Shown one piece after another: positions 1,404-38,792 of a DNA stretch of 64,000 nt. The first letter of the stretch is position 1, and each line of letters opens with the position of its first letter. The position numbers and the translations under genes are program-made. Source of the DNA: a virus; the IMG/VR virus record IMGVR_UViG_3300002030_000028. One strand, given 5' to 3'. The notes below the pieces were generated by a model. That model saw only the letters and a program-made list of their open reading frames with translations. It did not search any database and was not told where the DNA came from.

Positions 1404-1949
1404 ATGCCTAAAAAAGTACAAACACCAAGAGACGTTCTGGACGACCCAAAATATACCGAGGCCGCTCGGAACTTGATGGAAAATTCAGGAAAGCCCGGTC
1501 CAAAAGGCGGCAGGCCAACAGATTATCATCTGGTATTGACGCAAAGTCTTTGGGATCTGAGGGATGAAAATCCCGATAAGGTTTGGACACAAGCGGAGAT
1601 ATGCCGGTTTCTGGATATATCGGAAACCACATGCAGGTCATGGAAAAGAAAATATTCTGAATTTGCTGAAGTGGTCGATTCTCATCGTTTGGGCAATAAG
1701 GTCTTCTATGAAAAGGCGTTACGTCACAGCGCGGCAACCGGAAAAGGTAACAGTAGAAGCATTCAATTTGGTTTGATGAATTCCTACGAAGAGGACTATC
1801 GAAACCGTAATTCAGATGAGTCGATCGTTGATCAGAAGGTAAACACATCTGATGCACCGGATGTTTCTTTCCTGTCTCTCGACAGAAAGCGAAAAATGCT
1901 CGCTTTGATCAACTCCGGAGAGCCGCATGAACCTGCCGACGACGCATGA
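1404..1949 (+). CDS. terS: terminase small subunit (putative)
   Basis: 181 aa, directly upstream of terL and overlapping it by 23 nt. HTH-like segment QAEICRFLDISETTCRSWKRKY. Confidence 0.6.
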   Translation: MPKKVQTPRDVLDDPKYTEAARNLMENSGKPGPKGGRPTDYHLVLTQSLWDLRDENPDKVWTQAEICRFLDISETTCRSWKRKYSEFAEVVDSHRLGNKVFYEKALRHSAATGKGNSRSIQFGLMNSYEEDYRNRNSDESIVDQKVNTSDAPDVSFLSLDRKRKMLALINSGEPHEPADDA

Positions 1950-4431
1950 TGTAATCGAGTACGCGGAAAAGAACCCAGACCGGTTACAGTACATACTCGA
2001 AAAATCTCTGTGTCAGGAAAGCCTGATTGACTTCATACGTGTGTTTTGGAGTGAGGTTGAGCCATCGGTTGACCTCGCAACGAATTGGGCGCTCGAGGCT
2101 ATGGCGGAACATCTCGAGGCCGTTTCAAATGATGAGATAGATAATTTACTCATAAATGTCCCGCCGGGCATGATGAAAGCCGCCCCTTACTACCTCCCTG
2201 TTTTAACAACACACGGATGGAAGCAGCACGGTGATCTTGATGTAGGTGATTTTGTGTATGGGCCTGATGGTCGGCCTAAGTGCGTGCAAGCCAGAACTCC
2301 AGAGGTGATGGAGGCTTGCTATAGGGTCGAATTTAATGATGGTACAAGCGTTGATATTGGATCAGGGCATGAGTGGGTTGTCGAACGCGACATATCGGAC
2401 GCCACGACGAAGCATAAAAGGCGACGGATCTTGAAAACCGTCACAACGCTTGATTTGAAAGCTGGCGAGCGGGGGGACAGGATACCAACCGCTGCGCCAA
2501 TTCATATGCCACCGTCAAAACAATACATAGACCCGTATCTTCTAGGGGCGTGGCTTGGCGATGGCTCAAGTCGTGGCGGGACTATCTTTGCCGCAGAAGA
2601 CGATGCTGAAACAATTTTGCCCTATGGTGAGGTATCTAAGCGACTGCCTGCTGATGGGCTTCGCAGAAAAAAACCATTCTTAAAAATAAAAGTGCTGGGG
2701 CTTGCCAAATCTTTGCGGGTCATGGGGCTTATTGAGAACAAGCACATACCGTATGAATACCTTCATGCATCTATTGATCAGCGGATTGCTCTTTTGCAGG
2801 GGCTTATGGACACGGACGGGCACTGTGACAAAGGTGGGCGATGCACATTTACAAACAAAGAAAAACGCCTCGCTGATGGCGTCAAGTGGATCGCGGAGTC
2901 GCTAGGAATGGTCGCGACCATAAAAAGCCGATTCACTGAATTGAATGGAAAAACATATGGTCCTCATTACAGCGTTGGATTTAGGCCTTGGGATGGACTG
3001 CAAGTCTTTCGGATGAAAAGAAAGCAAGACCGAATTATTCCAGTTAAGCAGTCACGTTATAGATCAAGATATGTTAAATCTGTTTCTCCCATAGGAAAAA
3101 AACGCGTTAGGTGCATTCAGGTCGAAGGCGGTATCTATCTGATTGATCGCCATATGTGCCCTACTCACAACAGTCTTATGTGCGGGACTTTTTGGCAGGC
3201 TTGGGAGTGGGGTCCGAGGGGCAGGCCGGATCTTCAATATATTACGACCTCTTATGCCGCCGATCTCGCTAAACGCAATCACATGAAGACAAGAAGCCTC
3301 ATCGAAACTGATAAGTTTATGGAGTTTTATGGCTATCTTGTAAGTAAAAACCCAAAGAAAAAAGACAATGAAACTGAATACTGGCTGGCTGCTAACGGTA
3401 TGTCGTTCGCCACCGGAACGTTGGGGAAGCTTACGGGGTATCGCGCCGACCGCATCATCGTTGATGACCCTCACTCAGTCGACGGGGCTGAGAGTGAGCT
3501 TGATCGAGAGAGGACCGTTCGGTGGTTTACCGAAACTCTTTCAACGCGCTTCAACAACGCTAAAACGATCAAGCGCTTGGTGATTATGCAGCGTATTCAT
3601 GAGGGTGATGTTAGCGGCCATATTCTTGAAAACATGAAGGGTCGATATGAGCATTTGATGCTTCCGATGCGGTATGAGCCTGATCGTCGCTGCCATACCG
3701 TCATTGGTTTCAAAGACCCTCGTAAGGAAGATGGGGAGCTTTTGTTCCCTGAGCGTTTTCCTGAAAAAGAACAGACGGAAATCGAAGAAGATATGATGTC
3801 TCAGGGCGGTGAGTATTCGGTTGCGGGTCAAATGCAGCAAAGGCCGGCACCTCGCGGTGGTGGAATGTTCAAGGTCGACAAATTGAACTATTGCGAAATG
3901 GCTCCATCAGGGGGGAAGTTCGCAAGAGGCTGGGATTTTGCAGGTTCGGTCAAAAAGAAAAGTCCATACACGGCGGGCGTTAAGGGGAAGCTTGTTAAAG
4001 GCAACCTGTATATAACTGACGTGGTTAGGGTTCGGCAGAAGATTTATGAAGCCGAGGACACGATTGTTACCACATGCAAGGACGACACAAGATCCGTCCG
4101 GCAGTCACTTCCCCAAGACCCCGGACAAGCTGGTTTGTCTCAAGTGAATAATTTGGCGGGCCGATTGATAGGTTTAGATTTTACTTTCTCGCCCGAATCC
4201 GGGGCCAAAGAGGATCGCGCTATTCCGTTTGCCAGCTATGTGAATGCCGGCAAGGTTTACCTCGTTAAGGGCGATTGGAATAAGGCTTTCGTGAGTGAGC
4301 TGAAAACTTTCCCGCGCGGTACTTACAAAGATCAGGTCGACGCTGCGTCTCGTATGTTCACGGAGGTTCAGCGTATGCCGAAGCGGGCATCTTCAGGGGC
4401 TAAAGGTAAGAATTTCCCGGCTGAGGAATAA
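1927..4431 (+). CDS. terL: terminase large subunit, intein-containing precursor (834 aa; 503-aa exteins)
   Basis: Walker A is split: INVPPGMMK | intein | SLMCGTFWQAWEW. Walker B-like RIIVDDPHS, and a C-terminal nuclease-like region (WDFAGS, QDPGQAG). Confidence 0.9.
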   Translation: MNLPTTHDVIEYAEKNPDRLQYILEKSLCQESLIDFIRVFWSEVEPSVDLATNWALEAMAEHLEAVSNDEIDNLLINVPPGMMKAAPYYLPVLTTHGWKQHGDLDVGDFVYGPDGRPKCVQARTPEVMEACYRVEFNDGTSVDIGSGHEWVVERDISDATTKHKRRRILKTVTTLDLKAGERGDRIPTAAPIHMPPSKQYIDPYLLGAWLGDGSSRGGTIFAAEDDAETILPYGEVSKRLPADGLRRKKPFLKIKVLGLAKSLRVMGLIENKHIPYEYLHASIDQRIALLQGLMDTDGHCDKGGRCTFTNKEKRLADGVKWIAESLGMVATIKSRFTELNGKTYGPHYSVGFRPWDGLQVFRMKRKQDRIIPVKQSRYRSRYVKSVSPIGKKRVRCIQVEGGIYLIDRHMCPTHNSLMCGTFWQAWEWGPRGRPDLQYITTSYAADLAKRNHMKTRSLIETDKFMEFYGYLVSKNPKKKDNETEYWLAANGMSFATGTLGKLTGYRADRIIVDDPHSVDGAESELDRERTVRWFTETLSTRFNNAKTIKRLVIMQRIHEGDVSGHILENMKGRYEHLMLPMRYEPDRRCHTVIGFKDPRKEDGELLFPERFPEKEQTEIEEDMMSQGGEYSVAGQMQQRPAPRGGGMFKVDKLNYCEMAPSGGKFARGWDFAGSVKKKSPYTAGVKGKLVKGNLYITDVVRVRQKIYEAEDTIVTTCKDDTRSVRQSLPQDPGQAGLSQVNNLAGRLIGLDFTFSPESGAKEDRAIPFASYVNAGKVYLVKGDWNKAFVSELKTFPRGTYKDQVDAASRMFTEVQRMPKRASSGAKGKNFPAEE
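2179..3171 (+). mobile_element. Intein (331 aa) with LAGLIDADG homing endonuclease, class 3 (WCT) signature
   Basis: Starts at Ala (AAPYYLPVL) and ends THN followed by Ser+1. LAGLIDADG motifs LLGAWLGDGS and LLQGLMDTDGH. Block B GSGHEW (Trp at B12), block F VRCIQVE (Cys where Asp is usual), block G T-H-N. Confidence 0.85.
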
Positions 4432-7573: not shown

Positions 7574-7652
7574 TGCGCGAGAGTTTGAGCGATATTTATC
7601 ACCGATGGGACGAGATTTTGGAATTTCTCCAAGAAGAATGAAAGGAAATATC

Positions 7653-8501
7653 ATGGGATTGACGATAACGAATGAAAACGGGAAACGGGTTAGCTTCAAA
7701 ATGTTCACGTTTCCGGGTGGCGAGCGGCATGTACAGATAAAGAATTTTGAGAAGTCGGATCTGTACAAAGTCCGCGCGGCCCTCAATTCTTCAGATGAGA
7801 TAATGGATCTTCTTCTGGCTTGCGATGCCCTTCAGGAGTTAAGCGGTGGGTGCCGTATAGCGCTCCTGATACCCTATATGCCGTATGCGCGTCAGGATCG
7901 CGTATGTGCGCCCGGTCAGCCTTTCTCCATGAGGGTCATGGCTGATATTCTGCATACAATTCGCAATGTCGTTTCGATCACGACTTACGATATTCATAGT
8001 GATGCGGGATGCGATCTCGTCAATGCCAATAATATTCCGGCCTGCGATTTGATTATGGCCAGTCATGAGATTTCAAGCCTAATCCGTGAGAAAGATACGG
8101 TTATCGTTTGCCCGGATGCTGGCGCCGTTAAGAGGGTTGATGAACTCGCGGACTTATTCGGTAAGGCGCGTGATGTTGTTTACTGCCAAAAGGTCAGAGA
8201 TCCCGAAACTGGATTCATAAGCGAGATCACCGTCGGTGCGGAAACGCTCGAGGGCAAGACGGCTTTCATAGCTGACGATATATGCGACGGCGGCAGAACG
8301 TTCACCATGATCGCGCGCGCGCTCAGGGAGCTATCTGTCGAGCGTGTGGTGCTTTACGTTACGCACGGTATCTTCAGTAAAGGCATTGAGGCCGTCCTGC
8401 GCGACACTGAGACGGACCAACTTCTCATCGACAAGATATTCACCACCGACACGATAACGAACCATGTTCACCCGAACCTTGAAGTAATCAAATTAAAATA
8501 G
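7653..8501 (+). CDS. ribose-phosphate pyrophosphokinase family enzyme (Prs-like; candidate ADPR pyrophosphokinase Adps of NARP1)
   Basis: LLIPYMPYARQDR, TYDIHSD and the PRPP-loop FIADDICDGGRTF. Trimmed to the ATG at 7653, 4 nt after AAAGGAAA. Adjacent to the Nampt-like gene. Confidence 0.85.
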   Translation: MGLTITNENGKRVSFKMFTFPGGERHVQIKNFEKSDLYKVRAALNSSDEIMDLLLACDALQELSGGCRIALLIPYMPYARQDRVCAPGQPFSMRVMADILHTIRNVVSITTYDIHSDAGCDLVNANNIPACDLIMASHEISSLIREKDTVIVCPDAGAVKRVDELADLFGKARDVVYCQKVRDPETGFISEITVGAETLEGKTAFIADDICDGGRTFTMIARALRELSVERVVLYVTHGIFSKGIEAVLRDTETDQLLIDKIFTTDTITNHVHPNLEVIKLK

Positions 8502-8525
8502 CGAAAATTGAAAAGGAAAACAGCT

Positions 8526-10025
8526 ATGCGCTTAAACCCACTGACCGCGATCGACTTCTATAAGGCCGATCACCGCCGACAATACCCTGAAGGGACGGAG
8601 TACGTTTATTCAAATTTCACCCCGCGCTCGTCAAAGCACGCGCCAGTGCTCGATGATTTTGACGACCGCGTGGTTTTCTTTGGCCTTCAGGGTTTCATCA
8701 AAAGCTTTCTGATTGATGCTTGGAATGAAAATTTCTTCAATCGCCCGATAGAGCAGGTTCTGTACGACTATCAGGTCCGGATGGATAAATCGCTTGGCGT
8801 CGGAGTGATATCGGTTGAGCACATCGAGGCGCTCCACCGTCTCGGTGCGCTGCCCATTCACATCAAGGCCCTACCCGAGGGGTCTCGGGTCAATATGCGG
8901 GTTCCGATGTTCACGATCGTAAACACGCTGCCGGAATTCTTCTGGTTGACGAATTATCTCGAGACCTCGATGAGCGCGGGTATTTGGAAATCATGCACCA
9001 CCGCCACGATAGCATTTGAATACCGTCGGCTGCTTACGCATTTCTACAAAGAGACCGGCGCGGATCTTCGCGATATCGCGGTCAACGTCCATGACTTCAG
9101 TTTTCGCGGTATGAGCGGAATACATGACGCTGCTCAATCGGGAGCTGGTCATCTGTTGAGCTTTGTCGGAACCGATACCGTTCAGGCAATTGATTATGTC
9201 GATGAATATTACTTCGGTGCCGAGAGTGGGCCGGCGCCGATCGGCCTGTCTGTGCCCGCGACAGAGCATAGCGTGATGTGCATGGGCACGAAGGGGGATG
9301 AGGTCGGAACGTTTAGGCGCCTAATCACCGAGACCTACCCCACGGGGATTGTCTCGATCGTGTCCGATACATGGGATTTCTGGCAGGTCATCACGGAATA
9401 TTCTGTGTTGCTGAAGGATGAGATATTAGCCAGAGAACCCAATAACCTCGGACTGGCCAAGGTGGTATTCAGACCAGACAGCGGTGATCCGGTCAAAATA
9501 CTATGCGGTGACCCCGCAGCGCCTCTGGGTTCTCCGGCCCGTAAAGGGGCTGTGGAATGTCTCTGGGACATTTTCGGCGGCACTCACACGCCTGCTGGCT
9601 ATATGCAGCTACATGAGCGCGTGGGCCTCATCTATGGGGATTCTATAACGCTTCAACGCGCGAAGGACATTATGGAACGATTGAAGCTGAAGGGCTTCGC
9701 GGCAAATAACGTGGTGTTCGGGGTCGGGAGTTACACGTACCAATACGTGACCCGCGATAGCTTTGGGTTCGCGATGAAAGCCACTTGGGGTCAGGTCGAC
9801 GGTGAAGGCCGGGATATATTCAAAGACCCGATTACGGATGATGGATTGAAGAAATCCGCCAAAGGTCTGTTGAGGGTTGAGGAGACAGATCAGGGCTTTG
9901 TGCTTCATGATCAACAAACCGCCGATCAGGAACGCGAAGGCGCCATGAGGTCGGTGTTCCATGAGGGACGGTTGATTGTTGAGGATACGTTTCAGCAAAT
10001 CCGTCACCGCCTTATGGGCTTTTAG
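8526..10025 (+). CDS. nicotinamide phosphoribosyltransferase family enzyme (NadV/Nampt-like; candidate Namat of NARP1)
   Basis: N-terminus NPLTAIDFYKADHRRQYPEGTEYVYSNFTPRS plus FRGMSG, PATEHSVM, RPDSGDP and IYGDSIT, all typical of the Nampt family. ATG at 8526 follows AAAAGGAAAA. Confidence 0.9.
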   Translation: MRLNPLTAIDFYKADHRRQYPEGTEYVYSNFTPRSSKHAPVLDDFDDRVVFFGLQGFIKSFLIDAWNENFFNRPIEQVLYDYQVRMDKSLGVGVISVEHIEALHRLGALPIHIKALPEGSRVNMRVPMFTIVNTLPEFFWLTNYLETSMSAGIWKSCTTATIAFEYRRLLTHFYKETGADLRDIAVNVHDFSFRGMSGIHDAAQSGAGHLLSFVGTDTVQAIDYVDEYYFGAESGPAPIGLSVPATEHSVMCMGTKGDEVGTFRRLITETYPTGIVSIVSDTWDFWQVITEYSVLLKDEILAREPNNLGLAKVVFRPDSGDPVKILCGDPAAPLGSPARKGAVECLWDIFGGTHTPAGYMQLHERVGLIYGDSITLQRAKDIMERLKLKGFAANNVVFGVGSYTYQYVTRDSFGFAMKATWGQVDGEGRDIFKDPITDDGLKKSAKGLLRVEETDQGFVLHDQQTADQEREGAMRSVFHEGRLIVEDTFQQIRHRLMGF

Positions 10026-10149
10026 GATGCGGCCCCGGTTCTTCCGCATAGCGAGAACGCTTGATAAATGTAACCGGCATCCCCCGGCGGAGGGTTGATA
10101 ATATCCGCCACTTTTCACGAATACCAATTCCCATAGGCGAGGCTTTGAG

Positions 10150-10383: not shown

Positions 10384-10575
10384 TTAACATGGTGGTTCTT
10401 TTTTAAGAAAGCGATCGACCATAACCTCTGGGCTAGGCATCTCTAATCCTAATTCTTCAAGTTCATTTTTCGTATATTGAGCAGTCTCAATTAGCTTGCA
10501 CCTTTCCCTACATACGCGATACGCCACAGCAAGCCTCAAGGTAACGAAATCACTAGGGGGCATATGCATCATCAT
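10384..10575 (-). CDS. hypothetical protein (63 aa), co-transcribed with the XRE regulator
   Basis: ORF track entry. 4-nt overlap with the upstream minus-strand gene. Confidence 0.45.
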   Translation of the reverse strand: MMMHMPPSDFVTLRLAVAYRVCRERCKLIETAQYTKNELEELGLEMPSPEVMVDRFLKKEPPC

Positions 10576-10784
10576 TTTTGCTCAAGCTCCCTATCAAGCA
10601 GGAACTTGTATATAGCGGCCTGCGCTATACCGGGGACGTTCTTACGCCCGCTCTCAAATGCACTTATTTCGGGCGCGCTATAGGGTTTATTTTTCCCCGT
10701 TCTGTCCGATAGCCATTGACCAAATTCAATTTGCTTCATCTCCATGTGGGATCGGAAGTCCTTAAAGTCTTTTGCTGTCATCAT
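10572..10784 (-). CDS. XRE/Cro-type helix-turn-helix regulator (70 aa)
   Basis: MKQIEFGQWLSDRTGKNKPYSAPEISAFESGRKNVP is a typical HTH_XRE layout. GAGGAG SD. Divergent from the ribozyme operon. Confidence 0.7.
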   Translation of the reverse strand: MMTAKDFKDFRSHMEMKQIEFGQWLSDRTGKNKPYSAPEISAFESGRKNVPGIAQAAIYKFLLDRELEQK

Positions 10785-15148: not shown

Positions 15149-16666
15149 ATGACCCATAAGGGTGAAAACGAGGAGTTGATGTTTATGGCCAAGGGTAGCG
15201 CAAAAAGCTCAAGTACAATTCAGAAGGCTATTCTGAGCAGCCGGGGCTCATCGGGCTCTTCAAATCTTGGCGGCATTAAGAGCCGCTCGACCAGTATCAC
15301 CAAGCCCGGCGGTACGTCGGCGGTACGGCATTACGCTGGTTTCATCGCCACGCGTGAGCGAAACCCCAAGCTTCAACGCCACAAACGCTATGAAGAGTTT
15401 GGCGAGATGCTTCTCAATCAGCCCGTGGTGGCAGCGAGCGTTCGGTTATTTCTTCAAATCGTTAAAGGCATCGAGTGGAACGTTGTGCCGATCGAGGGTG
15501 ATGCGGACTCGAAACGATACGCTGAAGATCTTGAGGAGGTGATTGATAATCTCGAGAGCGGCTGGCCTCAAATTGTTCAACGTTTGTCAGCTTTCGTATA
15601 TTGGGGTTTTAGCATAAGCGAGTGGACAGCGAAGCAGCTCGAGAGCGGGATTGTGGGCTTCAGCGATATCGAGCCCCGTTCTCAACATACCATTCACCGT
15701 TGGGAAATTCAGGATACGGGGAAGATTACCGCCGTTACGCAGCTAAATCCCAACACCGGGGAAGAGCTATTGCTTGAGCGCCGGCGTCTCATATACGCGG
15801 TCGACAACAGCCTGAATGATGACCCGGAGGGGCTTGGCCTGTTTAGGCAGCTGTATTCGGCATACCGGCGTATTGAGAATTACAAGGTCATCGAGGAGAT
15901 TGGTTTTGATACCGACCTGCGCGGGGTGCCGATCGTCAAAGCGCCCCTCGAGGAGCTCAATCAAATGGTTGAGGAGGAAATCATAACGCCTGAGCGCCGT
16001 GAGGAAATCCTATCCGTGTATGAGAACTTCCTGAAAAACCATCAGCGCAAGAAGTCTCAAGGCATGATGATCGATAGTGAGACCTATCTTGATAACGATC
16101 GTAATCCTAGCAACATTCAGAAGTTTGAGATTGAGCTTCTGCGCGGCGATAGCTCAGGCATCATGACGGATTTGCAGAACGCCATTAACCGCGAGCGCAA
16201 CAACATAGCGATGATTGCGAACACGGGATTTCTGCTTCTGGGTGAAGACGGCGCGGGCTCTCTGGCCCTAAGTGAAACGAAGATGGAAACGATATTCATG
16301 TTCGTGAGCTCAACGCTTCAGGATCTGGCGTTCATTCTGAAGCGCGATATGTTCAGATCAGTGGCAAAGCTGAACGGCTGGAATGAGGCTTCGCTGCCGG
16401 ATCTCGATTACGAAAAACCGACAGTTCAGGATATCATCAAAATCACGGAGGCGCTGCGTAACACCTCGACGGCCTTTGGTCCGCTGCCCTCAACGTCTCA
16501 AACCATCAACGAAATCTTCTCAATCATGGGTCTTGAGCCTATACCGGAAGAGGAGTTTGATGCTCAGGACGACGCCCTATTGCCGGGCTTTGATGCTGGC
16601 GGCACTGGGGATCAGCTCGATATGTTCAACGAACCAAAGGAGGAGCCTGAAGATGGCGACGATTGA
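15149..16666 (+). CDS. portal protein (putative)
   Basis: 505 aa, first large gene of the morphogenesis block, acidic C-terminus. Start is uncertain (15149, 15179 or 15185). Assigned by size and position plus general resemblance, no diagnostic motif. Confidence 0.6.
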   Translation: MTHKGENEELMFMAKGSAKSSSTIQKAILSSRGSSGSSNLGGIKSRSTSITKPGGTSAVRHYAGFIATRERNPKLQRHKRYEEFGEMLLNQPVVAASVRLFLQIVKGIEWNVVPIEGDADSKRYAEDLEEVIDNLESGWPQIVQRLSAFVYWGFSISEWTAKQLESGIVGFSDIEPRSQHTIHRWEIQDTGKITAVTQLNPNTGEELLLERRRLIYAVDNSLNDDPEGLGLFRQLYSAYRRIENYKVIEEIGFDTDLRGVPIVKAPLEELNQMVEEEIITPERREEILSVYENFLKNHQRKKSQGMMIDSETYLDNDRNPSNIQKFEIELLRGDSSGIMTDLQNAINRERNNIAMIANTGFLLLGEDGAGSLALSETKMETIFMFVSSTLQDLAFILKRDMFRSVAKLNGWNEASLPDLDYEKPTVQDIIKITEALRNTSTAFGPLPSTSQTINEIFSIMGLEPIPEEEFDAQDDALLPGFDAGGTGDQLDMFNEPKEEPEDGDD

Positions 16667-19683: not shown

Positions 19684-22377
19684 ATGTCGTTTAATATTAG
19701 CTTTAATACTGGCAATCGCGCTGAAATGAATTCGGCATTCACATTTGTCGATAGAAGTGGTGCCGTTCAACCGGACCTGTCTGATGATGGGGTTCAGGGT
19801 GATCTTGATTTCGGTGATGGGACTACTGCTTCAGGTAATACTGGACCAACCGTCAATCCCGCTGGATTTAATGGTTACATCTACAGTGAAGCATCAGGCG
19901 GTGGTACTCCAGCATCATCTACTTGGTGTATGGCTCTTGATGCAGGTCAGCCTGTTGTTGCTGGCGAAGAAGTAACGATTGAATTTCAAGCCTCCTTAGA
20001 CGGGCTGGCGGGGTCTGAATTAATTGTAGAATACGCGCCAGCCGGGACAGCAATCACGGGAAACGCTGGATGGGTTAATATTGCAAATATTCCCGCGACT
20101 GATGGGAATGGTGCCTTTGTGGCGCAATCATTCACGTTCACGGCCATTACCACTGGCTCAACAGTTTTCCGTATTCGTTGGAACACGACGGGTAATTTTG
20201 CAAACGATTTAGCGGTTGGCGGCACTTTGAGTATTGTAAGTGTTTCGACGGTTATTGGCGCAGCGCCAGAGATCACGCTTTCAGGTGATGCAAATATTAT
20301 TCTGCAGCGCGGTGACGTTTACACAGATCCGGGCTTTAGCGCTATGGATGCAGAGGATGGTGATTTAACTGCTAACGTTGTTGTGGGTGGCGATACGGTT
20401 GATGTCGATAATTTCGGAACTTACGAGGTCACATATACAGTAACGGATGCTGATAGTAATACTGTCACGGTTTCACGCTTTGTAAGCGTAAGTCCGTATT
20501 TGTTTATAACAGATCCGTTTGTCGGTCCTTTTCCAAGCGGTCCAAGCACATGGACTCTTAACGGCAACCAGATCGTTCAAACCGGCTCAGGTACGCTTGA
20601 AGGCATGGACGCAATTGCAGGAGTTCAGCTTTGCGAAATAGACGGAAAAAGGGTCTATGACGTACAGGACGGAAACCGAGAAGTCATTGTTGAAGGAACA
20701 CTATTTATTGACCCGGAAGAGGAGCAACTTCTTAATGGGTATGATGGAACCACTGATTTATTTCAGGTCGTTAATAACGGTCATCTCATTATTGGTAGGT
20801 TCATAGATCAGAATGGATTTCGCAGACACAGTTCCGGCACGGCTATAGACTTTGAAAACACCAATACCGTTGGAGCATTTATTGATCGGGTTTCATTTCG
20901 TGACAATGCTAGGTTTGACTGGTTCGGTGGAACTATCGCGCTAGAAGGCGGAAAGTTTGGGTTCTATGATGATAACGTTACGGTTAGAATATATAGCCTT
21001 GAAGCTCGGTTAATTTTTAGAACGCAAGATGTTCAAAACCAGATACGGCAAGAGACTGATGATTTCATCTCTGAACAATTAGACTTTATCAATGGTGAGC
21101 TAACTATCGTTGGGGTGGACCAACAATTAAACGGATACCGACCTACACATTGCACTGGCGCATTAGCTTTTTCGAGCGCTACGCCGAATGTTGACGTGCC
21201 GATAAGAAACTATGCCGGGGGCGGGCGCGGAAACGTCATAGACGTGAAGCACTGGCAAGGTTCCAGACCATTTCTGATCAACTCAGAAACTGGATCAGAT
21301 CTGAATACAGGTCCGCACATCGCAGGAAATAATTTGTCCTTTGGCGCGGCCCGTGTCGAGCAAGAAATAGTCGTACAGCTTCAAGATCAGGCAAATAACG
21401 CGATTGCGGGCGCGTCCATATTCATCAGAGATGCGAACCACGGTAATCGTAGAACTTATACTCAGGAGGGTAATAATTTTAATCAACTTGCCGATAATGT
21501 TTATTTCGAGACTACGAGTTTAGGTGGTTCAAGCCCTACGCTTTCTGTTCGACTCGCTAACTGTTTTGCTTCGCAAGCGGTCGGATCAGCTAATGATCCT
21601 GTGAATACAGGAAGGTACACATGGGATCGCCGGGGAAAAACAAATGACGGACAAGACTTATTTGATATTCACGTCTGGGCATATGAGTTTATTTATCAAC
21701 CTTTCGCTGACGCTGTTCTGAAAGGCGCGAACGGACTTTCATTGTCTCAACGCATGTCCACCGATGCTTTGGTTACGAACCCTGATAGGACAGCCGTGGT
21801 TGCCTATACGGTTCTTGAAACCCCGCAAAAAGCTTATGATTATGTTAAGCAGTGGAAGTTAGAACAGGCGAATATAGAGCTGCCGACAATCGAGACCTTG
21901 CCGCTCACTCGCGAAGGAGACTTGATTGATGCCGGAAGCTTTGATGTTGACTTAGTTGATACCGGTCCGCCTTTTGCGCTCGCGGGAAGCACGTTGACGA
22001 TCAATACAGGTCCAACTTTCACCGGATCGATTATTACAACGGGCATTGTAACAAACCCTGATGTTTCTGTGGTTGGTCTTGTGACGGATGCTAATGGCCA
22101 GCGATCAACAGTCAGTATTGATTTCACAACAATTGTGCCGGGTTCTCGGTTGCTAGTGCAAGCCTTGTCCGGCGGGCCTCTTGCTGAAGGTTCTGTAATT
22201 TTCAATGATATCGTTACCGGGTCGAATGAATCTATTCCTTTCGCATTTGCTGGAAATCAGCCCATCATTGTTCGAGTGAGAAACTCTTCTAATGAGCCAT
22301 TTTATCAACCATTTATCGCGTCAGGCACAATCACAAGCTCAGGCTTTTCGTTATCTGTAAATCAAATCCTTGATTAA
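19684..22377 (+). CDS. large virion-associated/adhesin-like protein with Ig-like (DUF5011/HYR-type) domain
   Basis: 897 aa. PEITLSGDANIILQRGDVYTDPGFSAMDAEDGDLTANVVVGGDTVDVDNFGTYEVTYTVTDADSNTVTVSRFVSV fits the bacterial Ig-like repeat consensus. Remainder is beta-rich. Confidence 0.55.
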   Translation: MSFNISFNTGNRAEMNSAFTFVDRSGAVQPDLSDDGVQGDLDFGDGTTASGNTGPTVNPAGFNGYIYSEASGGGTPASSTWCMALDAGQPVVAGEEVTIEFQASLDGLAGSELIVEYAPAGTAITGNAGWVNIANIPATDGNGAFVAQSFTFTAITTGSTVFRIRWNTTGNFANDLAVGGTLSIVSVSTVIGAAPEITLSGDANIILQRGDVYTDPGFSAMDAEDGDLTANVVVGGDTVDVDNFGTYEVTYTVTDADSNTVTVSRFVSVSPYLFITDPFVGPFPSGPSTWTLNGNQIVQTGSGTLEGMDAIAGVQLCEIDGKRVYDVQDGNREVIVEGTLFIDPEEEQLLNGYDGTTDLFQVVNNGHLIIGRFIDQNGFRRHSSGTAIDFENTNTVGAFIDRVSFRDNARFDWFGGTIALEGGKFGFYDDNVTVRIYSLEARLIFRTQDVQNQIRQETDDFISEQLDFINGELTIVGVDQQLNGYRPTHCTGALAFSSATPNVDVPIRNYAGGGRGNVIDVKHWQGSRPFLINSETGSDLNTGPHIAGNNLSFGAARVEQEIVVQLQDQANNAIAGASIFIRDANHGNRRTYTQEGNNFNQLADNVYFETTSLGGSSPTLSVRLANCFASQAVGSANDPVNTGRYTWDRRGKTNDGQDLFDIHVWAYEFIYQPFADAVLKGANGLSLSQRMSTDALVTNPDRTAVVAYTVLETPQKAYDYVKQWKLEQANIELPTIETLPLTREGDLIDAGSFDVDLVDTGPPFALAGSTLTINTGPTFTGSIITTGIVTNPDVSVVGLVTDANGQRSTVSIDFTTIVPGSRLLVQALSGGPLAEGSVIFNDIVTGSNESIPFAFAGNQPIIVRVRNSSNEPFYQPFIASGTITSSGFSLSVNQILD

Positions 22378-23912: not shown

Positions 23913-24335
23913 TTGCTTGTGGGTGTTACTTCGGTCGAATGGGATACAAGAACAATATTCTTCGATGGCAACATTGATGTTCCGGTAACTCGTCGTGAGT
24001 TGCGGGAGATCGAGGCCAGTCAGGATGGTATTGTTTTTGACGAAATCATAAGTGTGACCGGAAACACCCTCATCGGAGCAGGCCGGAACGCTCTCAACGT
24101 CACACTCATAAACGGTTACGAATGGGTGTTTAACGGGGTTGGAGATAGAGAATCCTTTAATGGAAACTTTATCGGTATCGTTCGCCCTATACCGGGCATC
24201 TTCTTTCAGAGAGAGCTATCGCTGGCGTTTGCCGCGACCACGGCGCCGCTCAGTGATGAGCAGGACCGTAGCCTCGAGCTCGCGCGCGATCACGCAAGGG
24301 CCGCTAATATGCAGACGAAGCCTAATCCTGATTGA
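23913..24335 (+). CDS. hypothetical protein (140 aa)
   Basis: ORF track entry with a TTG start. Convergent with the minus-strand methylase. Confidence 0.45.
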   Translation: MLVGVTSVEWDTRTIFFDGNIDVPVTRRELREIEASQDGIVFDEIISVTGNTLIGAGRNALNVTLINGYEWVFNGVGDRESFNGNFIGIVRPIPGIFFQRELSLAFAATTAPLSDEQDRSLELARDHARAANMQTKPNPD

Positions 24336-25572
24336 CGGTTCGCTCGGCGGTGATCTGATCGAACGTCTTATCGGTGCCGTTCAGGATAGCCTTCTGGCCC
24401 GTATAATCCTGCCAGCGCTTAACGATCACGTCGATATAGTTCGGTGAGAGCTCAATCATAAATCCACGCTTGCCTAAATCATGACAGGCCAGAAGCGTTG
24501 ACCCTGAGCCCGTGAACATGTCGAGGATGTTGTTGCAGTTTTCCCCGTATGTCTCGAGGCACCACACCGCAAGCGCAACAGGCTTTTGGGTTGGATGTAC
24601 CCGTTTATTGCTGCGCTCTGACGCGCGGAGCATGCCATTCCACATATGTTTAAACTGACGAACAGCGGTCTTCTGATTTGTCCAAGCAAGCTCGCAATCT
24701 GCAAAATTATTTTTGCCATTCTCTTTGTCCCATACAATCCAGCATGGGGAGTTTGGTAATTCGTTCGCGTAATAATTTCCGCCCCATATGATTTGAAGCC
24801 TTGGTGCTATCTTCTCGATGAGCCTTATGGATCTGACGGCTGTATCGATACTGTCGTCACCAATAACAGGAGCATAATTTGTGGCCTTTGCTAGCTTGCC
24901 TGTCCCTATAGTTCCCTTTTTCACTTTACCGACCGGCGCATCACCGCCGACCTTACCGCCACCGTTCACGATAGATACACCATAGGGCGGGTCCGTATAT
25001 ACGCAGTCCACAGCGGCGCCATCCATGAGCGTGTTGACGGTATCCTCGCTTGTTCCGTCGCCACATATGACGCGGTGAGGGCCGCATATCCACAGATCAC
25101 CCTCTCGGCTGATAGCGGCATCCTGATATTCAGGGGTCGCGGGCTCCTTTTTCTCAGCCGGGTTCGTTGATTTCAGGACTTCACTGAGAAAGCTTTCATC
25201 GAAGCCCACCATATCCATATCAATATCGGTCTCCATGAGGTCCGAAATCTCGCTTGCGAGAAGGTCTTCATCCCACCCGGCGTTAAGCGCCACCTGATTG
25301 TCTGCGAGGATGTAAGCGCGCTTGGCGTCCTCGGCCCAATCTTTGGCGATAATCACCGGGACTTTATCAAGCCCCATCTTGAGCGCGGCTTTCTGACGGC
25401 CATGCCCAGCTATAATCTCATCGTTCTCATCAACCAGAATAGGCGTGGTCCAGCCGTACTTGTCTATGAGGGCGATGATCTGTTCGACTTGTTTGTCGCT
25501 GTGCGTGCGCGCATTGCGGGGGTTTGGCTTCAGCTTATTGGGGTCGCGGCGGTAAATCTTTGAGGCGGCCAT
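24322..25572 (-). CDS. ParB-like nuclease domain fused to a beta-class (DPPY) DNA methyltransferase
   Basis: N-terminus LKPNPRNARTHSDKQVEQI...GHGR (ParB/Srx fold). Motif IV VYTDPPYG followed by C-terminal motif I ILDMFTGSGSTL, the circular order of CcrM-type N6A/N4C methylases. Confidence 0.85.
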   Translation of the reverse strand: MAASKIYRRDPNKLKPNPRNARTHSDKQVEQIIALIDKYGWTTPILVDENDEIIAGHGRQKAALKMGLDKVPVIIAKDWAEDAKRAYILADNQVALNAGWDEDLLASEISDLMETDIDMDMVGFDESFLSEVLKSTNPAEKKEPATPEYQDAAISREGDLWICGPHRVICGDGTSEDTVNTLMDGAAVDCVYTDPPYGVSIVNGGGKVGGDAPVGKVKKGTIGTGKLAKATNYAPVIGDDSIDTAVRSIRLIEKIAPRLQIIWGGNYYANELPNSPCWIVWDKENGKNNFADCELAWTNQKTAVRQFKHMWNGMLRASERSNKRVHPTQKPVALAVWCLETYGENCNNILDMFTGSGSTLLACHDLGKRGFMIELSPNYIDVIVKRWQDYTGQKAILNGTDKTFDQITAERTVNQD

Positions 25573-25582
25573 GCTTGTTCGG

Positions 25583-25957
25583 TCATTTGTTTCTTTCTTT
25601 TTCTATTGATCTATAATCAAGAGATATGTGTGATCTGTTGCCGTCGTGGTGTTGATTTGCATGATCCTGTGATTGAATTTTGAAATCAACAGGAAGCCCA
25701 ATAATGTCAAAACCAAGAGCCATCCATGCTCGACAAATTGCACGCCATTTTGGTTTTAATGGAGCGTGTTCGGGGTCTCCGTATTCCTCGCGATAAACCT
25801 CGTCCGGAAGCATTACCACTATATCAATATCGTTGAAGTCTTTTCGGTGAAGGCTTGATCCCACCTGATAGACTGAATACCCAAAGGCATCTTTTACTAA
25901 GCACCCAAAATCCATTATCTTCATTTGTGTATAAACGTCAGGACCAGTTTTACCCAC
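25583..25957 (-). CDS. minimal nucleotidyltransferase-fold protein (124 aa)
   Basis: YQVGSSLHRKDFNDIDIVVML matches the GS-x(n)-DxD Pol-beta-type NTase signature. Confidence 0.55.
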   Translation of the reverse strand: MGKTGPDVYTQMKIMDFGCLVKDAFGYSVYQVGSSLHRKDFNDIDIVVMLPDEVYREEYGDPEHAPLKPKWRAICRAWMALGFDIIGLPVDFKIQSQDHANQHHDGNRSHISLDYRSIEKERNK

Positions 25958-26363
25958 TATATATATCCTCTGAATATGTTAAACAGCAAATTCTCTGCAT
26001 AGGGTTCCTAACGATAGATATTTCAACCAAGTCAACAAGAGATATGGTTCTTATGTGCTTGGATATCGTGTAATGGTGGGCTCTAAACCCTACAGATAAG
26101 CCGTCTATTCCGGCTATAATTAGCCTTCTAACAGCTCTGTCTGTAACGATACCCGACACGTGTAGGCCGGTATTGTCTTCTTTGATGGATGACCATTTTC
26201 CGATTGGGTGTAAAGAGCGATGCTGATGCAGCATGGGTATAGGCCGTTGATCGATATCCACATTCCGGAAGGCGCCTATAATGAACCTATCTTTTGACAA
26301 ATCGATATGATCGAATATCGCGGCATAACCTGATACGATGAATTGTTTCTCAGGCTTCTGCAT
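25950..26363 (-). CDS. HK97-type (S78) prohead protease homolog, antisense to the head module
   Basis: FIVSGYAAIFDHIDLSKDRFIIGAFRN, IPMLHQHRSLHPIGKW, GLSVGFR and LVEISIVRNPM match S78 blocks including the His and Ser. Track ORF extends to 26531. The ATG at 26363 is the likely start. Confidence 0.65.
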   Translation of the reverse strand: MQKPEKQFIVSGYAAIFDHIDLSKDRFIIGAFRNVDIDQRPIPMLHQHRSLHPIGKWSSIKEDNTGLHVSGIVTDRAVRRLIIAGIDGLSVGFRAHHYTISKHIRTISLVDLVEISIVRNPMQRICCLTYSEDIYSG

Positions 26364-26469
26364 ATCCGTTTTCCCATCCGCATTTACAACAGGTGAGGGG
26401 CGTTTCTGTGCAGGCTGAGCAAGGCGGATTGCCCATGTGACATGAGCAGCCTTTAATATCGTAACCCAT
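26350..26469 (-). CDS. Cys-rich mini-ORF (39 aa) inside a 97-codon open frame lacking an upstream ATG
   Basis: Hand-translated MGYDIKGCSCHMGNPPCSACTETPLTCCKCGWENGYAEA. Its stop overlaps the protease start. The frame is open back to 26643. Confidence 0.25.
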   Translation of the reverse strand: MGYDIKGCSCHMGNPPCSACTETPLTCCKCGWENGYAEA

Positions 26470-26755
26470 GATGCCTTCACATTCAGAGGCAGGACATTGG
26501 TCGCCTTCTTCGCGATTAAAAGCAGCAACAAATCCTAACCGAAAGCAGTCTGATAATTGAGAAGGCGTTTCTGTCGCGAGCCCATGTTTTCTCAGTCCAG
26601 AAAGTATTTCGAATAACGTGGCTTCCTGAATTGTCCAAGCAGTTTAACAAAAAAATACGATTTATCTGGTTTCAGGCATCCCGATACGAGGCATTTTCTT
26701 GACCTTTTTGCTCATCGCGCATACGGGGAATTATAGATTGAATTGGGAAAGCCTC

Positions 26756-34997: not shown

Positions 34998-37900
34998 GTG
35001 GCCACGTTTCCAATTGATGTAACCCTAGACCCCGCCGGCGTGAGAGCTGGCGCTCGTCGGGCCAAAGGTGAGCTTAGGGGCGTCCGTCAGGAAGGCGAGC
35101 GCACCCAATCAACTCTTTTAAAGCTATTCAGCGGCGCCGCGCTCGGTGTTGGTATTCAGCGCGGCATCAGCCTGCTGGCGGACTTCAGCCAACAAATGTC
35201 AACCGTTCAGGCGGTTTCCCGCGCGACAGAGACGGAGTTTCGACAGTTACAGGCCACGGCGGAGCGTCTGGGCCGTACAACGCGCTTCAGCGCCTCGCAG
35301 GCCGCTGAGGGCATGACGTTCCTCGCGCGCGCTGGTTTCAGTGCCAGTGAGGTTCTGGGGACCATCGAGGGAACGCTTCAACTTGCGCAAGCGGGTGCGT
35401 TGGGTCTCGGACAGGCTGCTGATATCGCCTCAAACGTATTGCAGGGCTTTCAGCTTAATGTCGCGGAAACCGGTCGGGTCGTTGATGTTCTGGCTCTCGG
35501 TGCGAACTCGGCGAATACAAGCGTTAGTCAACTTGGTAATGCGTTGTCCTTCGCCGCGCCCGTGGCATCTGGTCTGGGCGTGAGCCTTGAGGAAACAACA
35601 TCGGCGATCGGGGCACTATCGAATGCTGGTGTACAAGGTAGCCGCGCCGGTACTGGTCTCAACAGAGTTCTGGCCGAGCTTGAGAACCCGGCGGCTGGTC
35701 TCAAAGGTGTGCTGGAAGAGCTTGGATTGGCCGCTGATGAAGTGAGTATCAGTAACGTCGGCCTTGCCGGCGCCCTGAAGGTTCTGGCGGACGCGAATAT
35801 TGATACCGGGCAGGCTCTGGCGGCGTTCGGGCAGCGCGGTGGACCGGCGGCAAATATCCTGATTGATCTATTCCGTAACACTGAGCTGGCCGATAGCGCA
35901 TTCGTTCAATTTACAGGGTCTCTTGAAAATGCAGATGGGACGGCGCAGCGTATCGCGGATACGATGGACGACAATCTCAACGGCGCCATATTGTCAGCCC
36001 GTTCAGCCCTCGAGGGGTTTATTATTGCGGTCGGGAACGCCGGTGCCACCGAGGCTCTCGTTATGGGTGCTCAGGGACTCGCGACAACACTTCGTTTCGC
36101 AGCCGATAATGCCGATATTTTGGTCGTCGGTCTTGGGGCGTATGTGGCTGCTACGGCGCTCGCGGCGGCGGCAAACTCGACCCTCGTAGCAAGTACGGTC
36201 GCAAGTACGCAGGCGTTTTTCGCAAAAACGGCACAGCTCAGGGTCTCCACAATTGCTATGATCGCCGCCAGCGGCGCTGCAAGGACGTTGGGCGCGGGAT
36301 TGTTGGCGCTCGCTGCGAACCCCGTCGTGATCGGCGTCACGGCTGTCGTGGGTGCATTCCTGCTTCTGCGTGATACTGCCAAGGATACCGGTGACGAAAT
36401 ACAGAAAACAGAGTCGCTTTTACAGCAATATCAGAAGACCGCGAGCAGTGTTGAGCGTGATACTGACCTATTGAGGCGCCGTAATGAAGAGCTGGCGAAG
36501 GCCATTAAGAGCACAGGTGAAGAGGCCACAGAGGCCGTGCTGCTTGAGCGTGATGCTATTCGGCGCCGGATAGGTAATAATCGTAAGCTTCTGAGGGAGT
36601 ATCAAGCTCAGTTACGCGCGCAGCTTGCCGTCACAAGAGCAACTCAGAAAACGAATGATGTTCGGGCTCTCTCTGACGTAACGGGCCTTCGCCGGGAATC
36701 CAGACAGGTTCAGGACTTTGGTGCAGGCACAGGCCCGAGCGGCATCAGCACAATACGTGAAAGTGAAGCATCCTTCATCTCTCGAGCAACAAGAGAGCTT
36801 GAGCGTCAAGCAGAGCTGGCCGTTGAAGCTGATCAGAATGGCATGATTATAAGCGACCGTCAGGTCAAGATACTTGAGTTCACGCAGCGCCGGCGACAGG
36901 AATTAGAGAAGATCAATGGTCTTGAGGAGGCTATTGCCGCTCTCGACCCGAGTTCTGAATTTGATGAATTTGGCGGATTGTCTGCGTTCCTTGAGGACCA
37001 GAGGAATAGACCCCCTCCCCCTCCCCCTTCTGCCGGCAGCGCGGCTAGCCCAGATTTTGATAAGCAATTTTCTGAGCTTCAGTCTCTCACAAACGCTATC
37101 GGTGAAAACGAAGCAGCGCTTGAGCGCCGGAACGGTGTTCTTGAATTTGCTCGTGAGCTCGAAAGAGACCTTACGGCGGAGGAATCCGCGCGCGTGGACG
37201 CTGAACTTCGTCGCCAGCAAGTGCTGACAGATAATCAGGCGTTTGAGCAACGAGCTCAAGATATCGCACGCGAAACGACCCTGATTGGCGAGAACGCGCG
37301 TGAAGCCGAGATACTTGCCGAGATATACGACGCTGAGCGTAACTCGCTCCTTGGCCTGTCTACGGCCCAAGAACAGCGTATTCGTAACCTCGTCGAGGAA
37401 GGTCAGGCCGCTCGGGATGATGCAACGATACAGCAGCGCCTCGATACGCTTGGGCAGGAGGCTCAACTTTTGATGCTTGTGGGCACTGAGGCCCGTGTGA
37501 TGACGGAGGTTCTCAGGCTTCAGAACCAGCTTCAGCGTGATTTGACGGAGACAGAGGTTGACTGGATCGATACCGCTATCCGGACAAATGAAGAGCTCGA
37601 GCGCCGTAATCGCATTCTGACAAATGCCCAGAACCCGACGCAACAGGCGAAGGATGATTTACGGTCTCTGATAGACCTTTATGAAGAAGGAAGGCTTTCG
37701 CTTCAGGAATTCAATCGTGAGCTTCAGGACAATCAAGTCGCTAACGATGTCGCTCGGCTTGATCAGCAGCTGGGGGCTTCTGGTTTTGGTGTGGGGCCGT
37801 CTGCGTTTGAAGAGCAAAGGCGTAATGCCGAGCTCGCGCAACGTGCGCAAGAGGGCGGCGGGATAGATGATGGCTTTGGTGGAAGCTTCTTCGGCCTTGG

Positions 37901-38792
37901 CGCTGATGCGCTTGGCGTCGGTGATGAAGCTGAACGCCTGCGTGAACAGACGCAACAACGTCTCGAGCTTCTTCGTGAGGCGCGCGAACAAGAGCTTTTG
38001 ACCGAGCAGGAGTTCATCGAACGCAAAAACGCTCTCTTTGAAAGCTCAAACCAACAGCAAACTACTATCTTGCAGCGCGGGCTTAATGATCAGCTTCAGG
38101 GCGCCCAGAACCTATTTGGTAGCCTTGCGGATATCGCTCGCCAGACCGCCGGCGAACAGTCAGGTATCTATCGGGGCTTGGTAGCGGTTCAGCGCGCTGC
38201 CGGCATTGCGCAGGCGACTATCGCTATCAGTACAGCTATCGCTCAGGGTATACAGCAATCTCAGTCCTTGCCATTTCCCGGTAATATCGCCGCGATCGCC
38301 ACAACTATCGGCGCGGTGACGGCTCAAACCGCTGGCATCATATCGACCATCAGGGGTGTGCAGCCTAATTTTCGTGATGGTGGATTGCCGGGCGGCGTTC
38401 TGGGCGGGGTAGGGGGGCCGCGTGAAGATAGTAATCTGGTACGGGTGAGCCGTGGTGAGTTCATCGCTAACGCGGAATCGACGCGCCGTAACCTGCCGCT
38501 TCTTCAGGCGATCAATGATTTCGGTCGAAACAGAACACTCAACTTCCGCGATGGCGGGCTTGTAACGGGTCGTGATCTGGCCAGGCCGAGGCGTGCCGCA
38601 AATGACAACATACCGCGTGCCGGTATCATGATATCGGTGGAAGGTATCAATATACAGATGCCTGAGAGCGCCGATCGTGATACGGCCCGCGAGCTTGGAG
38701 AAGAAGCTGGTCGGGCATTCGTTCGGTCGGTTATTCAAGAGGAATCCCGGTACGGTGGTTTGCTTGATCCCGGTGCGAGAAGGGCCTCTTAA
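34998..38792 (+). CDS. tape measure protein
   Basis: 1264 aa, GTG start after GGGAGG. N-terminal TMP-type region (SVSQLGNALSFAAPVASGLGVSLEETTSAIGALSNAGVQGSRAGTGL), hydrophobic segments and long coiled coils. Confidence 0.9.
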   Translation: MATFPIDVTLDPAGVRAGARRAKGELRGVRQEGERTQSTLLKLFSGAALGVGIQRGISLLADFSQQMSTVQAVSRATETEFRQLQATAERLGRTTRFSASQAAEGMTFLARAGFSASEVLGTIEGTLQLAQAGALGLGQAADIASNVLQGFQLNVAETGRVVDVLALGANSANTSVSQLGNALSFAAPVASGLGVSLEETTSAIGALSNAGVQGSRAGTGLNRVLAELENPAAGLKGVLEELGLAADEVSISNVGLAGALKVLADANIDTGQALAAFGQRGGPAANILIDLFRNTELADSAFVQFTGSLENADGTAQRIADTMDDNLNGAILSARSALEGFIIAVGNAGATEALVMGAQGLATTLRFAADNADILVVGLGAYVAATALAAAANSTLVASTVASTQAFFAKTAQLRVSTIAMIAASGAARTLGAGLLALAANPVVIGVTAVVGAFLLLRDTAKDTGDEIQKTESLLQQYQKTASSVERDTDLLRRRNEELAKAIKSTGEEATEAVLLERDAIRRRIGNNRKLLREYQAQLRAQLAVTRATQKTNDVRALSDVTGLRRESRQVQDFGAGTGPSGISTIRESEASFISRATRELERQAELAVEADQNGMIISDRQVKILEFTQRRRQELEKINGLEEAIAALDPSSEFDEFGGLSAFLEDQRNRPPPPPPSAGSAASPDFDKQFSELQSLTNAIGENEAALERRNGVLEFARELERDLTAEESARVDAELRRQQVLTDNQAFEQRAQDIARETTLIGENAREAEILAEIYDAERNSLLGLSTAQEQRIRNLVEEGQAARDDATIQQRLDTLGQEAQLLMLVGTEARVMTEVLRLQNQLQRDLTETEVDWIDTAIRTNEELERRNRILTNAQNPTQQAKDDLRSLIDLYEEGRLSLQEFNRELQDNQVANDVARLDQQLGASGFGVGPSAFEEQRRNAELAQRAQEGGGIDDGFGGSFFGLGADALGVGDEAERLREQTQQRLELLREAREQELLTEQEFIERKNALFESSNQQQTTILQRGLNDQLQGAQNLFGSLADIARQTAGEQSGIYRGLVAVQRAAGIAQATIAISTAIAQGIQQSQSLPFPGNIAAIATTIGAVTAQTAGIISTIRGVQPNFRDGGLPGGVLGGVGGPREDSNLVRVSRGEFIANAESTRRNLPLLQAINDFGRNRTLNFRDGGLVTGRDLARPRRAANDNIPRAGIMISVEGINIQMPESADRDTARELGEEAGRAFVRSVIQEESRYGGLLDPGARRAS

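Follow-up and report, generated by a model that had tools for sequence, protein, structure and literature searches.

What do two adjacent genes, one resembling phosphoribosyl pyrophosphate (PRPP) synthetase (Prs) and the other nicotinamide phosphoribosyltransferase (Nampt), contribute to a tailed phage? The question is raised by positions 7653 to 10025 of a 64,000-nucleotide stretch of viral DNA, IMG/VR record IMGVR_UViG_3300002030_000028, that is referred to here as the window. Such a pair could serve the ordinary salvage of nicotinamide through nicotinamide mononucleotide (NMN), or it could be NARP1, a two-gene pathway that reconstitutes nicotinamide adenine dinucleotide (NAD+). The original prediction matched the pair to NARP1, and the analysis supports that match. 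The two genes probably form a NARP1 operon in a novel siphovirus-type phage, a reading of the sequence that draws on the operon arrangement, the placement of the proteins in the Adps and Namat clades, the clamp motif of one protein, the truncation and donor site of the other, and the lack of an NMN adenylyltransferase (Nmnat) in the window.

NARP1 is present in approximately 4% of sequenced phages and repairs the damage caused by Thoeris type I, DSR1/2, SIR2-HerA, SEFIR and other NADase systems, blocking no single one of them; a further pathway, NARP3, consists of PnuC and NadR. In NARP1 the Prs-like enzyme Adps uses ATP to turn ADP-ribose (ADPR) into ADPR-pyrophosphate (ADPR-PP), from which the Nampt-like enzyme Namat makes NAD+ with nicotinamide, and in NARP2 a true Nampt is combined with an Nmnat, as in phage KVP40 (10.1101/2024.02.11.579819). 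NARP1 from four unrelated phages counters NAD+-depleting defenses (10.1101/2024.02.11.579819; PMC13586617), and ADPR is scarce unless NAD+ is cleaved, so that the pathway idles where no NADase is active (10.1101/2024.02.11.579819).

The substrates, products and counter-defense role of the pair in the window can be predicted by homology to these characterized enzymes. The trigger would be a SIR2, TIR or SEFIR effector that cleaves NAD+ into ADPR and nicotinamide. The Adps-like enzyme would then move the beta,gamma-pyrophosphate of ATP onto the terminal ribose of ADPR, generating ADPR-PP and AMP, and the Namat-like enzyme would replace the pyrophosphate of ADPR-PP with nicotinamide, releasing NAD+ and pyrophosphate directly. 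Such a route would need neither an NMN intermediate nor an adenylyltransferase.

The elements of the operon are as follows.

7642-7646, plus strand: AAGGA, the Adps-like gene's ribosome-binding site, 6 nt before its ATG, read from the sequence
7653-8501, plus strand: Adps-like gene of 282 amino acids, Prs family, assigned by Pfam, NCBIfam, PHROG, tree and residues
8513-8517, plus strand: AAGGA, the Namat-like gene's ribosome-binding site, 8 nt before its ATG and within the intergenic gap, read from the sequence
8526-10025, plus strand: Namat-like gene of 499 amino acids, Nampt family, assigned by PDB search, motif, contact residues and tree

The pair had been described as a Prs-family gene carrying PYARQDR and DDICDGGRT, followed 24 nt later by a Nampt-family gene. 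Both motifs are present, Pfam, NCBIfam and PHROG agree on the family, and the TAG stop of the Prs-like gene ends at 8501 with the next ATG at 8526 on the same strand, leaving a gap of exactly 24 nt. The Prs-like open reading frame (ORF) spans 7605-8501; the chosen ATG at 7653 agrees with the N-termini of homologues and with a 282-residue database entry, and the upstream alternative ATG at 7605 has no AAGGA-type site. Likewise, the Nampt-like ORF spans 8508-10025 and its ATG at 8526 agrees with the N-termini of homologues. No terminator was found between the two genes, and scans for promoters and terminators gave matches no more numerous than in shuffled sequence. A 6-bp inverted repeat at 10027-10049, after the Nampt-like stop, was not counted as a terminator as it lacks a T-run. 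The pair lies in a run of small plus-strand ORFs between the terminase and the portal, and none of the accessory genes linked to NARP1 (RyDEP or RyR domains, phosphatases, macro domains) was found in the flanking small ORFs. A compositional sign of recent horizontal acquisition was also sought and not found, the GC content of the pair and that at third codon positions (GC3) matching those of the phage.

The same arrangement recurs in other viruses. Searching with the Prs-like protein found 27 viral loci, each with a downstream Nampt-family gene on the same strand, and searching with the Nampt-like protein found 80, of which 75 have a Prs-like ORF no more than 3 kb away; co-occurrence at this frequency means that the pairing is not a chance juxtaposition. 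The order of Prs followed by Nampt is also that of SPbetaL1, ICP1, ITTPL, finno, phage K, Wilder and Menlow. Namat has been reported to neighbor 97% of Adps-clade genes and bacterial prs only rarely (10.1101/2024.02.11.579819).

Membership of the Nampt family is clear for the downstream protein, which matches PF18127 and PF04095 in Pfam, NF006629 in NCBIfam (577 bits) and PHROG 448 (637 bits). Within the family it lies with the Namats. A phmmer search of the PDB gave 524 bits to SPbetaL1 Namat (9w5x/9w5w), 452 bits to a third Namat-like entry, 9ke8, and approximately 200-210 bits to Xcc and mammalian Nampt, while its blastp identity is 52% with the Namat of SPbetaL1, 50% with that of ICP1 and 30% with KVP40 NadV. 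Identities over 2,049 phage records separate into two groups, one of 34-69% that holds the characterized NARP1 phages and one of 26-32% that is KVP40-type and comprises T4-like and jumbo phages. The Namats separate from the Nampts (KVP40 NadV and Xcc Nampt) with 100% bootstrap, and the protein from the window is placed inside the clade spanned by the SPbetaL1 and ICP1 Namats.

The selectivity of Namat has been traced to a clamp that combines a helix motif (SCH), GS-X-phi-X-phi-X-phi-TRD, which bears adenine-stacking aromatics, with a variable loop (SCL) that has Arg, Lys or Tyr at its third position, this residue or the next stacking on adenine; the clamp is dispensable for PRPP chemistry and needed for the use of ADPR-PP (PMC12774641). 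In the window, residues 401-411 carry the SCH motif as GSYTYQYVTRD, identical to that of ICP1; T, Q and V fill its phi1, phi2 and phi3 positions, in agreement with the published consensus. Where the window has this motif, KVP40 reads GGGLLQQLDRD and Xcc GGALLQKVDRD. All 20 published contacts to nicotinamide, NMN and AMP are identical or conservatively replaced, among them Y403 and Y407 (which correspond to F392 and Y396), T409-R410-D411 and R316, the counterpart of R306, mutation of which abolishes Namat activity (PMC12774641). The catalytic core comprises F191, D217, R316 and the His of ATEHS at residue 248, against F189, D215, R306 and the catalytic His of the reference. The SCL position is occupied by K37-H38, of which K37 aligns with SPbetaL1 R40; ICP1 has K-Y and a Bas63-like phage K-W, and K37-H38 fits the class of a Lys with its following residue described for Bas63. 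An insertion of 12-13 residues, CGDPxxxxGSPxxKG, is common to this protein and the Namats and absent from KVP40 and Xcc. These features suggest that the product of 8526-10025 is of the Namat type and would join ADPR-PP and nicotinamide into NAD+.

A separate observation concerns PDB entries 9ke8 and 9keo, which are titled “nicotinamide phosphoribosyltransferase” and group with the Namats. They may represent a Namat-clade enzyme with a different specificity clamp.

The upstream protein belongs to the Prs family, with matches to PF13793 and PF00156 (PF14572 falls just under the cut-off), to TIGR01251 in NCBIfam (154 bits) and, over its full length, to the phage family PHROG 619 (250 bits). All NCBIfam equivalog models for Prs score far below their cut-offs, the best specific (PRK-level) model, with its cut-off at 297, reaching 122 bits. 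Scores among canonical Prs (B. subtilis, E. coli, human, Burkholderia and Mycobacterium) are 287-352 bits, while none of them exceeds 88 bits with the Prs-like protein, which sets the latter far outside the canonical group. Bootstrapped neighbor-joining trees give the same picture, separating canonical Prs from the rest with 100% bootstrap and leaving the protein from the window on the Adps side. The canonical outgroup contained Prs from E. coli and five other Gammaproteobacteria, together with those of Burkholderia (3dah), B. subtilis and human (PRPS1), the last two sequences being verified against 1dkr and 8dbc, respectively; E. coli Prs as the query of a contig search had returned only Gammaproteobacteria of at least 80% identity, and the outgroup was widened beyond them.

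Adps enzymes are distinguished from canonical Prs by loss of the alpha11-alpha12 module, termed their “defining evolutionary signature,” by degenerate allosteric sites, and by an ATP-donor site in which the PP loop and a beta-hairpin are remodelled, at C215-S220, I194 and F221 of ICP1 (PMC13586617). The protein from the window carries these marks and departs at each from canonical class I Prs. It has no C-terminal alpha11-alpha12 module; 43 residues follow THG, compared with 62-67 in the E. coli, B. subtilis and human enzymes, so that the C-terminus is approximately 20-25 residues shorter and the alignment stops before the LAEAIRR...SxSxLF segment. The RF (regulatory) loop, RVCAPGQ, lacks the canonical basic residues, and an HS motif (HSDA) stands where canonical Prs have LHA-QIQGFF. 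In the donor site, DGGRT replaces the canonical DTGGT, within a PP loop (DDICDGGRTF) that is the same in the Bas63-like phage finno, mycobacteriophage Wilder and Klebsiella phage Menlow, and the beta-hairpin KVRDPETGFI follows the pattern K-x-R-D-x-x-T-G-x-I and is one residue longer than the canonical one. At the positions of ICP1 I194, C215, G217 and F221 the window has the Adps-clade residue where canonical Prs have S/A/V, I, T and L/I, respectively. The G217 position is T in nine of nine canonical Prs and G in the window, and a column-by-column alignment shows I194 and F221 (I189 and F217 in the window) to be invariant in 34 of 34 Adps-type sequences. The catalytic Lys, K180 (ICP1 K185, SPbetaL1 K162), and the acceptor-site residues R80, H115, D155, D208, D209 and D212 (ICP1 R87, H121, D161, D212, D213 and D216) are also present, although they do not discriminate, being conserved in PRPS as well. 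The product of 7653-8501 is predicted to be of the Adps type and to pyrophosphorylate ADPR to ADPR-PP with ATP.

The remaining line of evidence concerns genes for other routes to NAD+. ORFs of the window were taken from a greedy gene call, and Pfam was run on 58 of them and on 10 small flanking ORFs; 20 of the larger ORFs were rescanned individually against Pfam, and 10 further large ORFs were compared with PHROGs. The 68 ORFs gave no Pfam match to CTP_transf_like (NMNAT), NUDIX, NadR, PnuC, macro or RyR-type domains, and the 10 further ORFs proved to be structural or replication proteins. A Nudix/NrtR protein used as a tblastn query found no match in the window, and NrtR was not found by Pfam either. 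The earlier statement that no NMN adenylyltransferase is recognizable in the window thus holds for all three kinds of search.

Several observations weigh against assigning the pair to NARP1. The Prs-like protein is less diverged than known Adps, scoring 88 bits by phmmer against E. coli Prs where ICP1 Adps scores 49 bits, and by blastp it is about equally near to E. coli Prs (96 bits), ICP1 Adps (106 bits) and SPbetaL1 Adps (77 bits). The trees were built from limited samples. In them the Prs-like protein groups with chromosomal NrtR-linked Prs2 at only 54-68% support, and the characterized Adps (SPbetaL1, ICP1, Bas63-like phage, mycobacteriophage) all fall in a sister subclade, none inside its own. 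The ICP1 contacts F92, V195, C197 and F223 correspond to C, S, I and M in the window, although accepted Adps differ from one another at these positions too. As for the Namat-like protein, its SCL is five residues longer than that of SPbetaL1 and the putative stacking residue is a His. Finally, Namats retain PRPP-to-NMN activity in vitro (PMC12774641; 10.1101/2024.02.11.579819), so that an NMN route completed by host enzymes could also operate. The original prediction held that sequence alone cannot separate NARP1 from a PRPP plus NMN salvage route. We regard this as too pessimistic, since the signatures described in 2026 in PMC12774641 and PMC13586617 are present in the two proteins. The phylogenies that it had proposed, here run by neighbor joining, placed them on the Adps and Namat sides with 100% bootstrap and not with canonical Prs and NadV.

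The closest kin of the pair are not other phage genes. Both proteins have their nearest relatives on proteobacterial chromosomes, at 41-49% identity for the Prs-like and 69% for the Nampt-like protein, and nothing in a database of 5.8 billion proteins exceeds 49% identity to the former. The best matches of the Prs-like protein reach only 44-49% identity, and all five with readable context lie in cellular prs2-nadV-nrtR loci beside mutL, ileS, uvrA, ssb or similar genes, and grouping of the Namat-like protein with its chromosomal relatives has 89-100% support. Viral contigs hold Namat relatives of up to 65% and Adps relatives of up to 43% identity, and nrtR is found in none of them. The window follows the viral pattern, having no adjacent nrtR and being made up of phage genes around the pair, although the enzymes themselves are closest to the group of NrtR-regulated chromosomal operons.

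The top “phage” match of the Nampt-like protein (69%) is itself a mislabelled Acinetobacter chromosome with prsA_2, nadV and a 255-residue protein that joins a Nudix domain to a winged helix-turn-helix. The entry, CAKLQF020000015.1, is named “Acinetobacter phage MD-2021a,” and its 45.5-59.0 kb region is ordinary Acinetobacter chromosome with iron ABC transporter, efflux and methionine-synthesis genes. The “NadM” (“bifunctional NMNAT/ADP-ribose pyrophosphatase”) annotated beside the Acinetobacter homologue was considered as a sign of the canonical NMN route and rejected, as it is this 255-residue regulator of the NrtR type.

The chromosomal prs-nadV operons were described by Rodionov et al. 2008 (PMC2330246), who showed them to be derepressed by ADPR and left the dedicated second prs paralogue unexplained. 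Chromosomal NARP1 has since been noted, and housekeeping roles raised for bacterial NARP1, by Osterman et al. (10.1101/2024.02.11.579819) and by Lan et al.; the bacterial pair tested so far is that of Paenibacillus foliorum alone, which is SPbetaL1-like (PMC12774641), and no test of ADPR-PP chemistry in the proteobacterial subclade was found in the literature searched. The chromosomal prs2-nadV-nrtR clusters retain all of the Adps-type and Namat-type specificity features. Judged by their sequences, the ADPR-derepressed operons of Rodionov et al. look like chromosomal NARP1, and we lean, by somewhat more than an even chance, toward the view that the pair in the window belongs to the same subclade as those of Acinetobacter, Shewanella and Marinomonas and that these operons would perform NARP1 chemistry. 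Such chemistry would explain both the derepression by ADPR and the dedicated second prs paralogue. If this is true, Rodionov's paralogue is part of a chromosomal pathway that recycles ADPR to NAD+ and is switched on by its own substrate, and the phage is a direct example of exchange between a housekeeping operon and a phage anti-defense module, with loss of the regulator.

These operons were long annotated differently, and the reading of prs-nadV that prevailed before 2024 supplies the strongest competitor to NARP1: an unregulated PRPP synthetase that serves a true Nampt/NadV, the resulting NMN being finished to NAD+ by host NadR, NadM or PncC-NadD-NadE. Both proteins do match Prs and NAPRTase/NAMPT family models, their closest relatives are operons annotated in this way, the Prs-like protein has every residue shared with PRPS catalysis, and Namat keeps PRPP-dependent NMN synthesis in vitro. 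Nevertheless, canonical salvage is unlikely here. The Nampt-like protein has the adenine clamp (Y403, Y407, T409), dispensable for PRPP chemistry and needed for the use of ADPR-PP, and the three adenine-stacking aromatics are strictly kept in all six chromosomal partners examined as well. Canonical salvage also sits poorly with a Prs-like protein that lies outside canonical Prs at full bootstrap and has a truncation and a donor site like those of Adps. With ribose-5-phosphate as substrate SPbetaL1 Adps yielded no product, the Bas63 operon functions in a host without pncC and nadR (10.1101/2024.02.11.579819), and the window offers no Nmnat.

Kinship with chromosomal operons raises another possibility, that the pair carries out NARP1 chemistry with no part in anti-defense, as a passenger from an NrtR-controlled housekeeping pathway of ADPR recycling that boosts or stabilizes NAD+ during infection. 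The flanking of its nearest relatives by mutL, ileS, uvrA and ssb, and the housekeeping roles raised by Osterman et al. and Lan et al., are consistent with such an origin. We consider it quite improbable, as ADPR is scarce without NAD+ cleavage and counter-defense has been demonstrated for NARP1 of four unrelated phages. Moreover, the phage copy has no NrtR repressor, as would suit expression that is constitutive or timed to infection, and its GC and GC3 match the phage, which argues against a recent passenger. A pathway of the NARP2 (Nampt and Nmnat) or NARP3 (PnuC and NadR) type can be set aside almost entirely, since although a Nampt-family gene is present in the phage, no Nmnat was found in the 68 ORFs scanned and no PnuC-like transporter or NadR-like enzyme among the Pfam matches of the window, identity of the protein to KVP40 NadV is only 30%, with a split between the two at 100% bootstrap, and it has a Prs-like partner, with no phage found by Osterman et al. 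to hold both NARP1 and NARP2 (10.1101/2024.02.11.579819).

NARP1 remains the preferred reading, and its carrier is a novel siphovirus-type tailed phage. The window covers most of one phage genome, 64.0 kb of a 65.7-kb contig, with approximately 1.7 kb lying outside it, and the structural genes located by PHROG scan include the following.

1927-4431, plus strand: large terminase
15149-16666: portal
34998-38792: tape-measure protein
40754-46441: J-like central tail fiber

Replication genes comprise a primase and a DnaB-type helicase, both from the PHROG scan, and Pfam identifies small terminase-like and Mu-F-like proteins, a prohead protease, an endolysin-type peptidase and two DNA methyltransferases; no tRNA genes were found in the window. 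Searches of 50,697 phage records, by megablast with the gene pair and by blastn with the structural region, returned no match, which makes this a new phage by DNA comparison, and its terminase is at most approximately 41% identical to known terminases. A look-up of the exact Prs-like protein sequence returned no record.

Some features of the genome deserve mention in their own right. The terminase ORF is unusually long at 834 residues; alignments with the terminases of other phages are broken into two segments that cover only 56-59% of it, and PHROG matches are split between residues 59-311 and 421-824, which may reflect an insertion or a fusion. Directly downstream of the pair, two small minus-strand ORFs at 10384-10784 break the plus-strand run; the longer is 10572-10784 and the shorter has no Pfam match. 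Minus-strand genes also occur inside the otherwise plus-strand structural module, at 24322-25572 (a fusion of ParB_N with an N6/N4 DNA methylase) and 25950-26531 (the S78 prohead protease). A second DNA methyltransferase, of the MT-A70 family, lies at 52242-52820 on the minus strand in the replication module, and the two methylases suggest anti-restriction protection beside NARP1. At 19684-22377 on the plus strand is an ORF of 897 residues with a bacterial surface immunoglobulin-like domain and no PHROG match; it is compositionally distinct, with a GC3 of 0.39 versus approximately 0.5-0.6 in adjacent genes.

The pair is an ordinary, divergent member of the known NARP1 anti-defense family, unusual only in its closest kinship with chromosomal bacterial versions. 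NARP1 is already well described, and to the specialist this copy is confirmatory rather than surprising; it adds a divergent member to the family, and its presence in an otherwise unknown siphovirus predicts infection of hosts armed with NADase-based systems. The modest extra interest lies in the ADPR-regulated chromosomal kin, as kinship with NrtR-controlled operons bears on the direction in which the module has been transferred, from bacteria to phages or from phages to bacteria, and on the real function of the chromosomal operons.

How the pair relates to named systems can be seen by setting it beside each of them. It shares with NARP1 of Bacillus phage SPbetaL1 the gene order and adjacency, the Namat catalytic core, the type of SCH motif and the CGDP insertion (Namat 52% identity, 524 bits), as well as the truncated C-terminus, catalytic Lys, I194 and F221 of Adps. 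The two differ in that Adps identity is only 31%, the PP loop is DDLSSFGGTF in SPbetaL1 and DDICDGGRTF in the window, and the longer SCL of the window (by five residues) has K-H versus R-V. NARP1 of Vibrio phage ICP1 is alike in its SCH motif GSYTYQYVTRD, its Lys-type SCL, a PP loop that starts DDICDG, the K-x-R-D-x-x-T-G-x-I hairpin and the length of Adps (280 and 282 residues), although Adps identity is 33% over 73% and ICP1 F92, V195, C197 and F223 are replaced. NARP2 of Vibrio phage KVP40 (NadV and NatV) is more distant. Its NadV is a Nampt-family protein with the same nicotinamide- and ribose-binding core, but it lacks the aromatic SCH and the CGDP insertion, has a short SCL and is 30% identical; it depends on an Nmnat, not found in the window, and is without a Prs-like partner. 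The chromosomal prs-nadV operons of Acinetobacter, Shewanella and Marinomonas (PMC2330246) come closest, sharing the gene order, the PP loop DDICDGG-x-TF, the SCH aromatics and the long SCL. They differ from the window in their setting, having nrtR, housekeeping neighbors and derepression by ADPR, whereas the window is that of a phage without nrtR.

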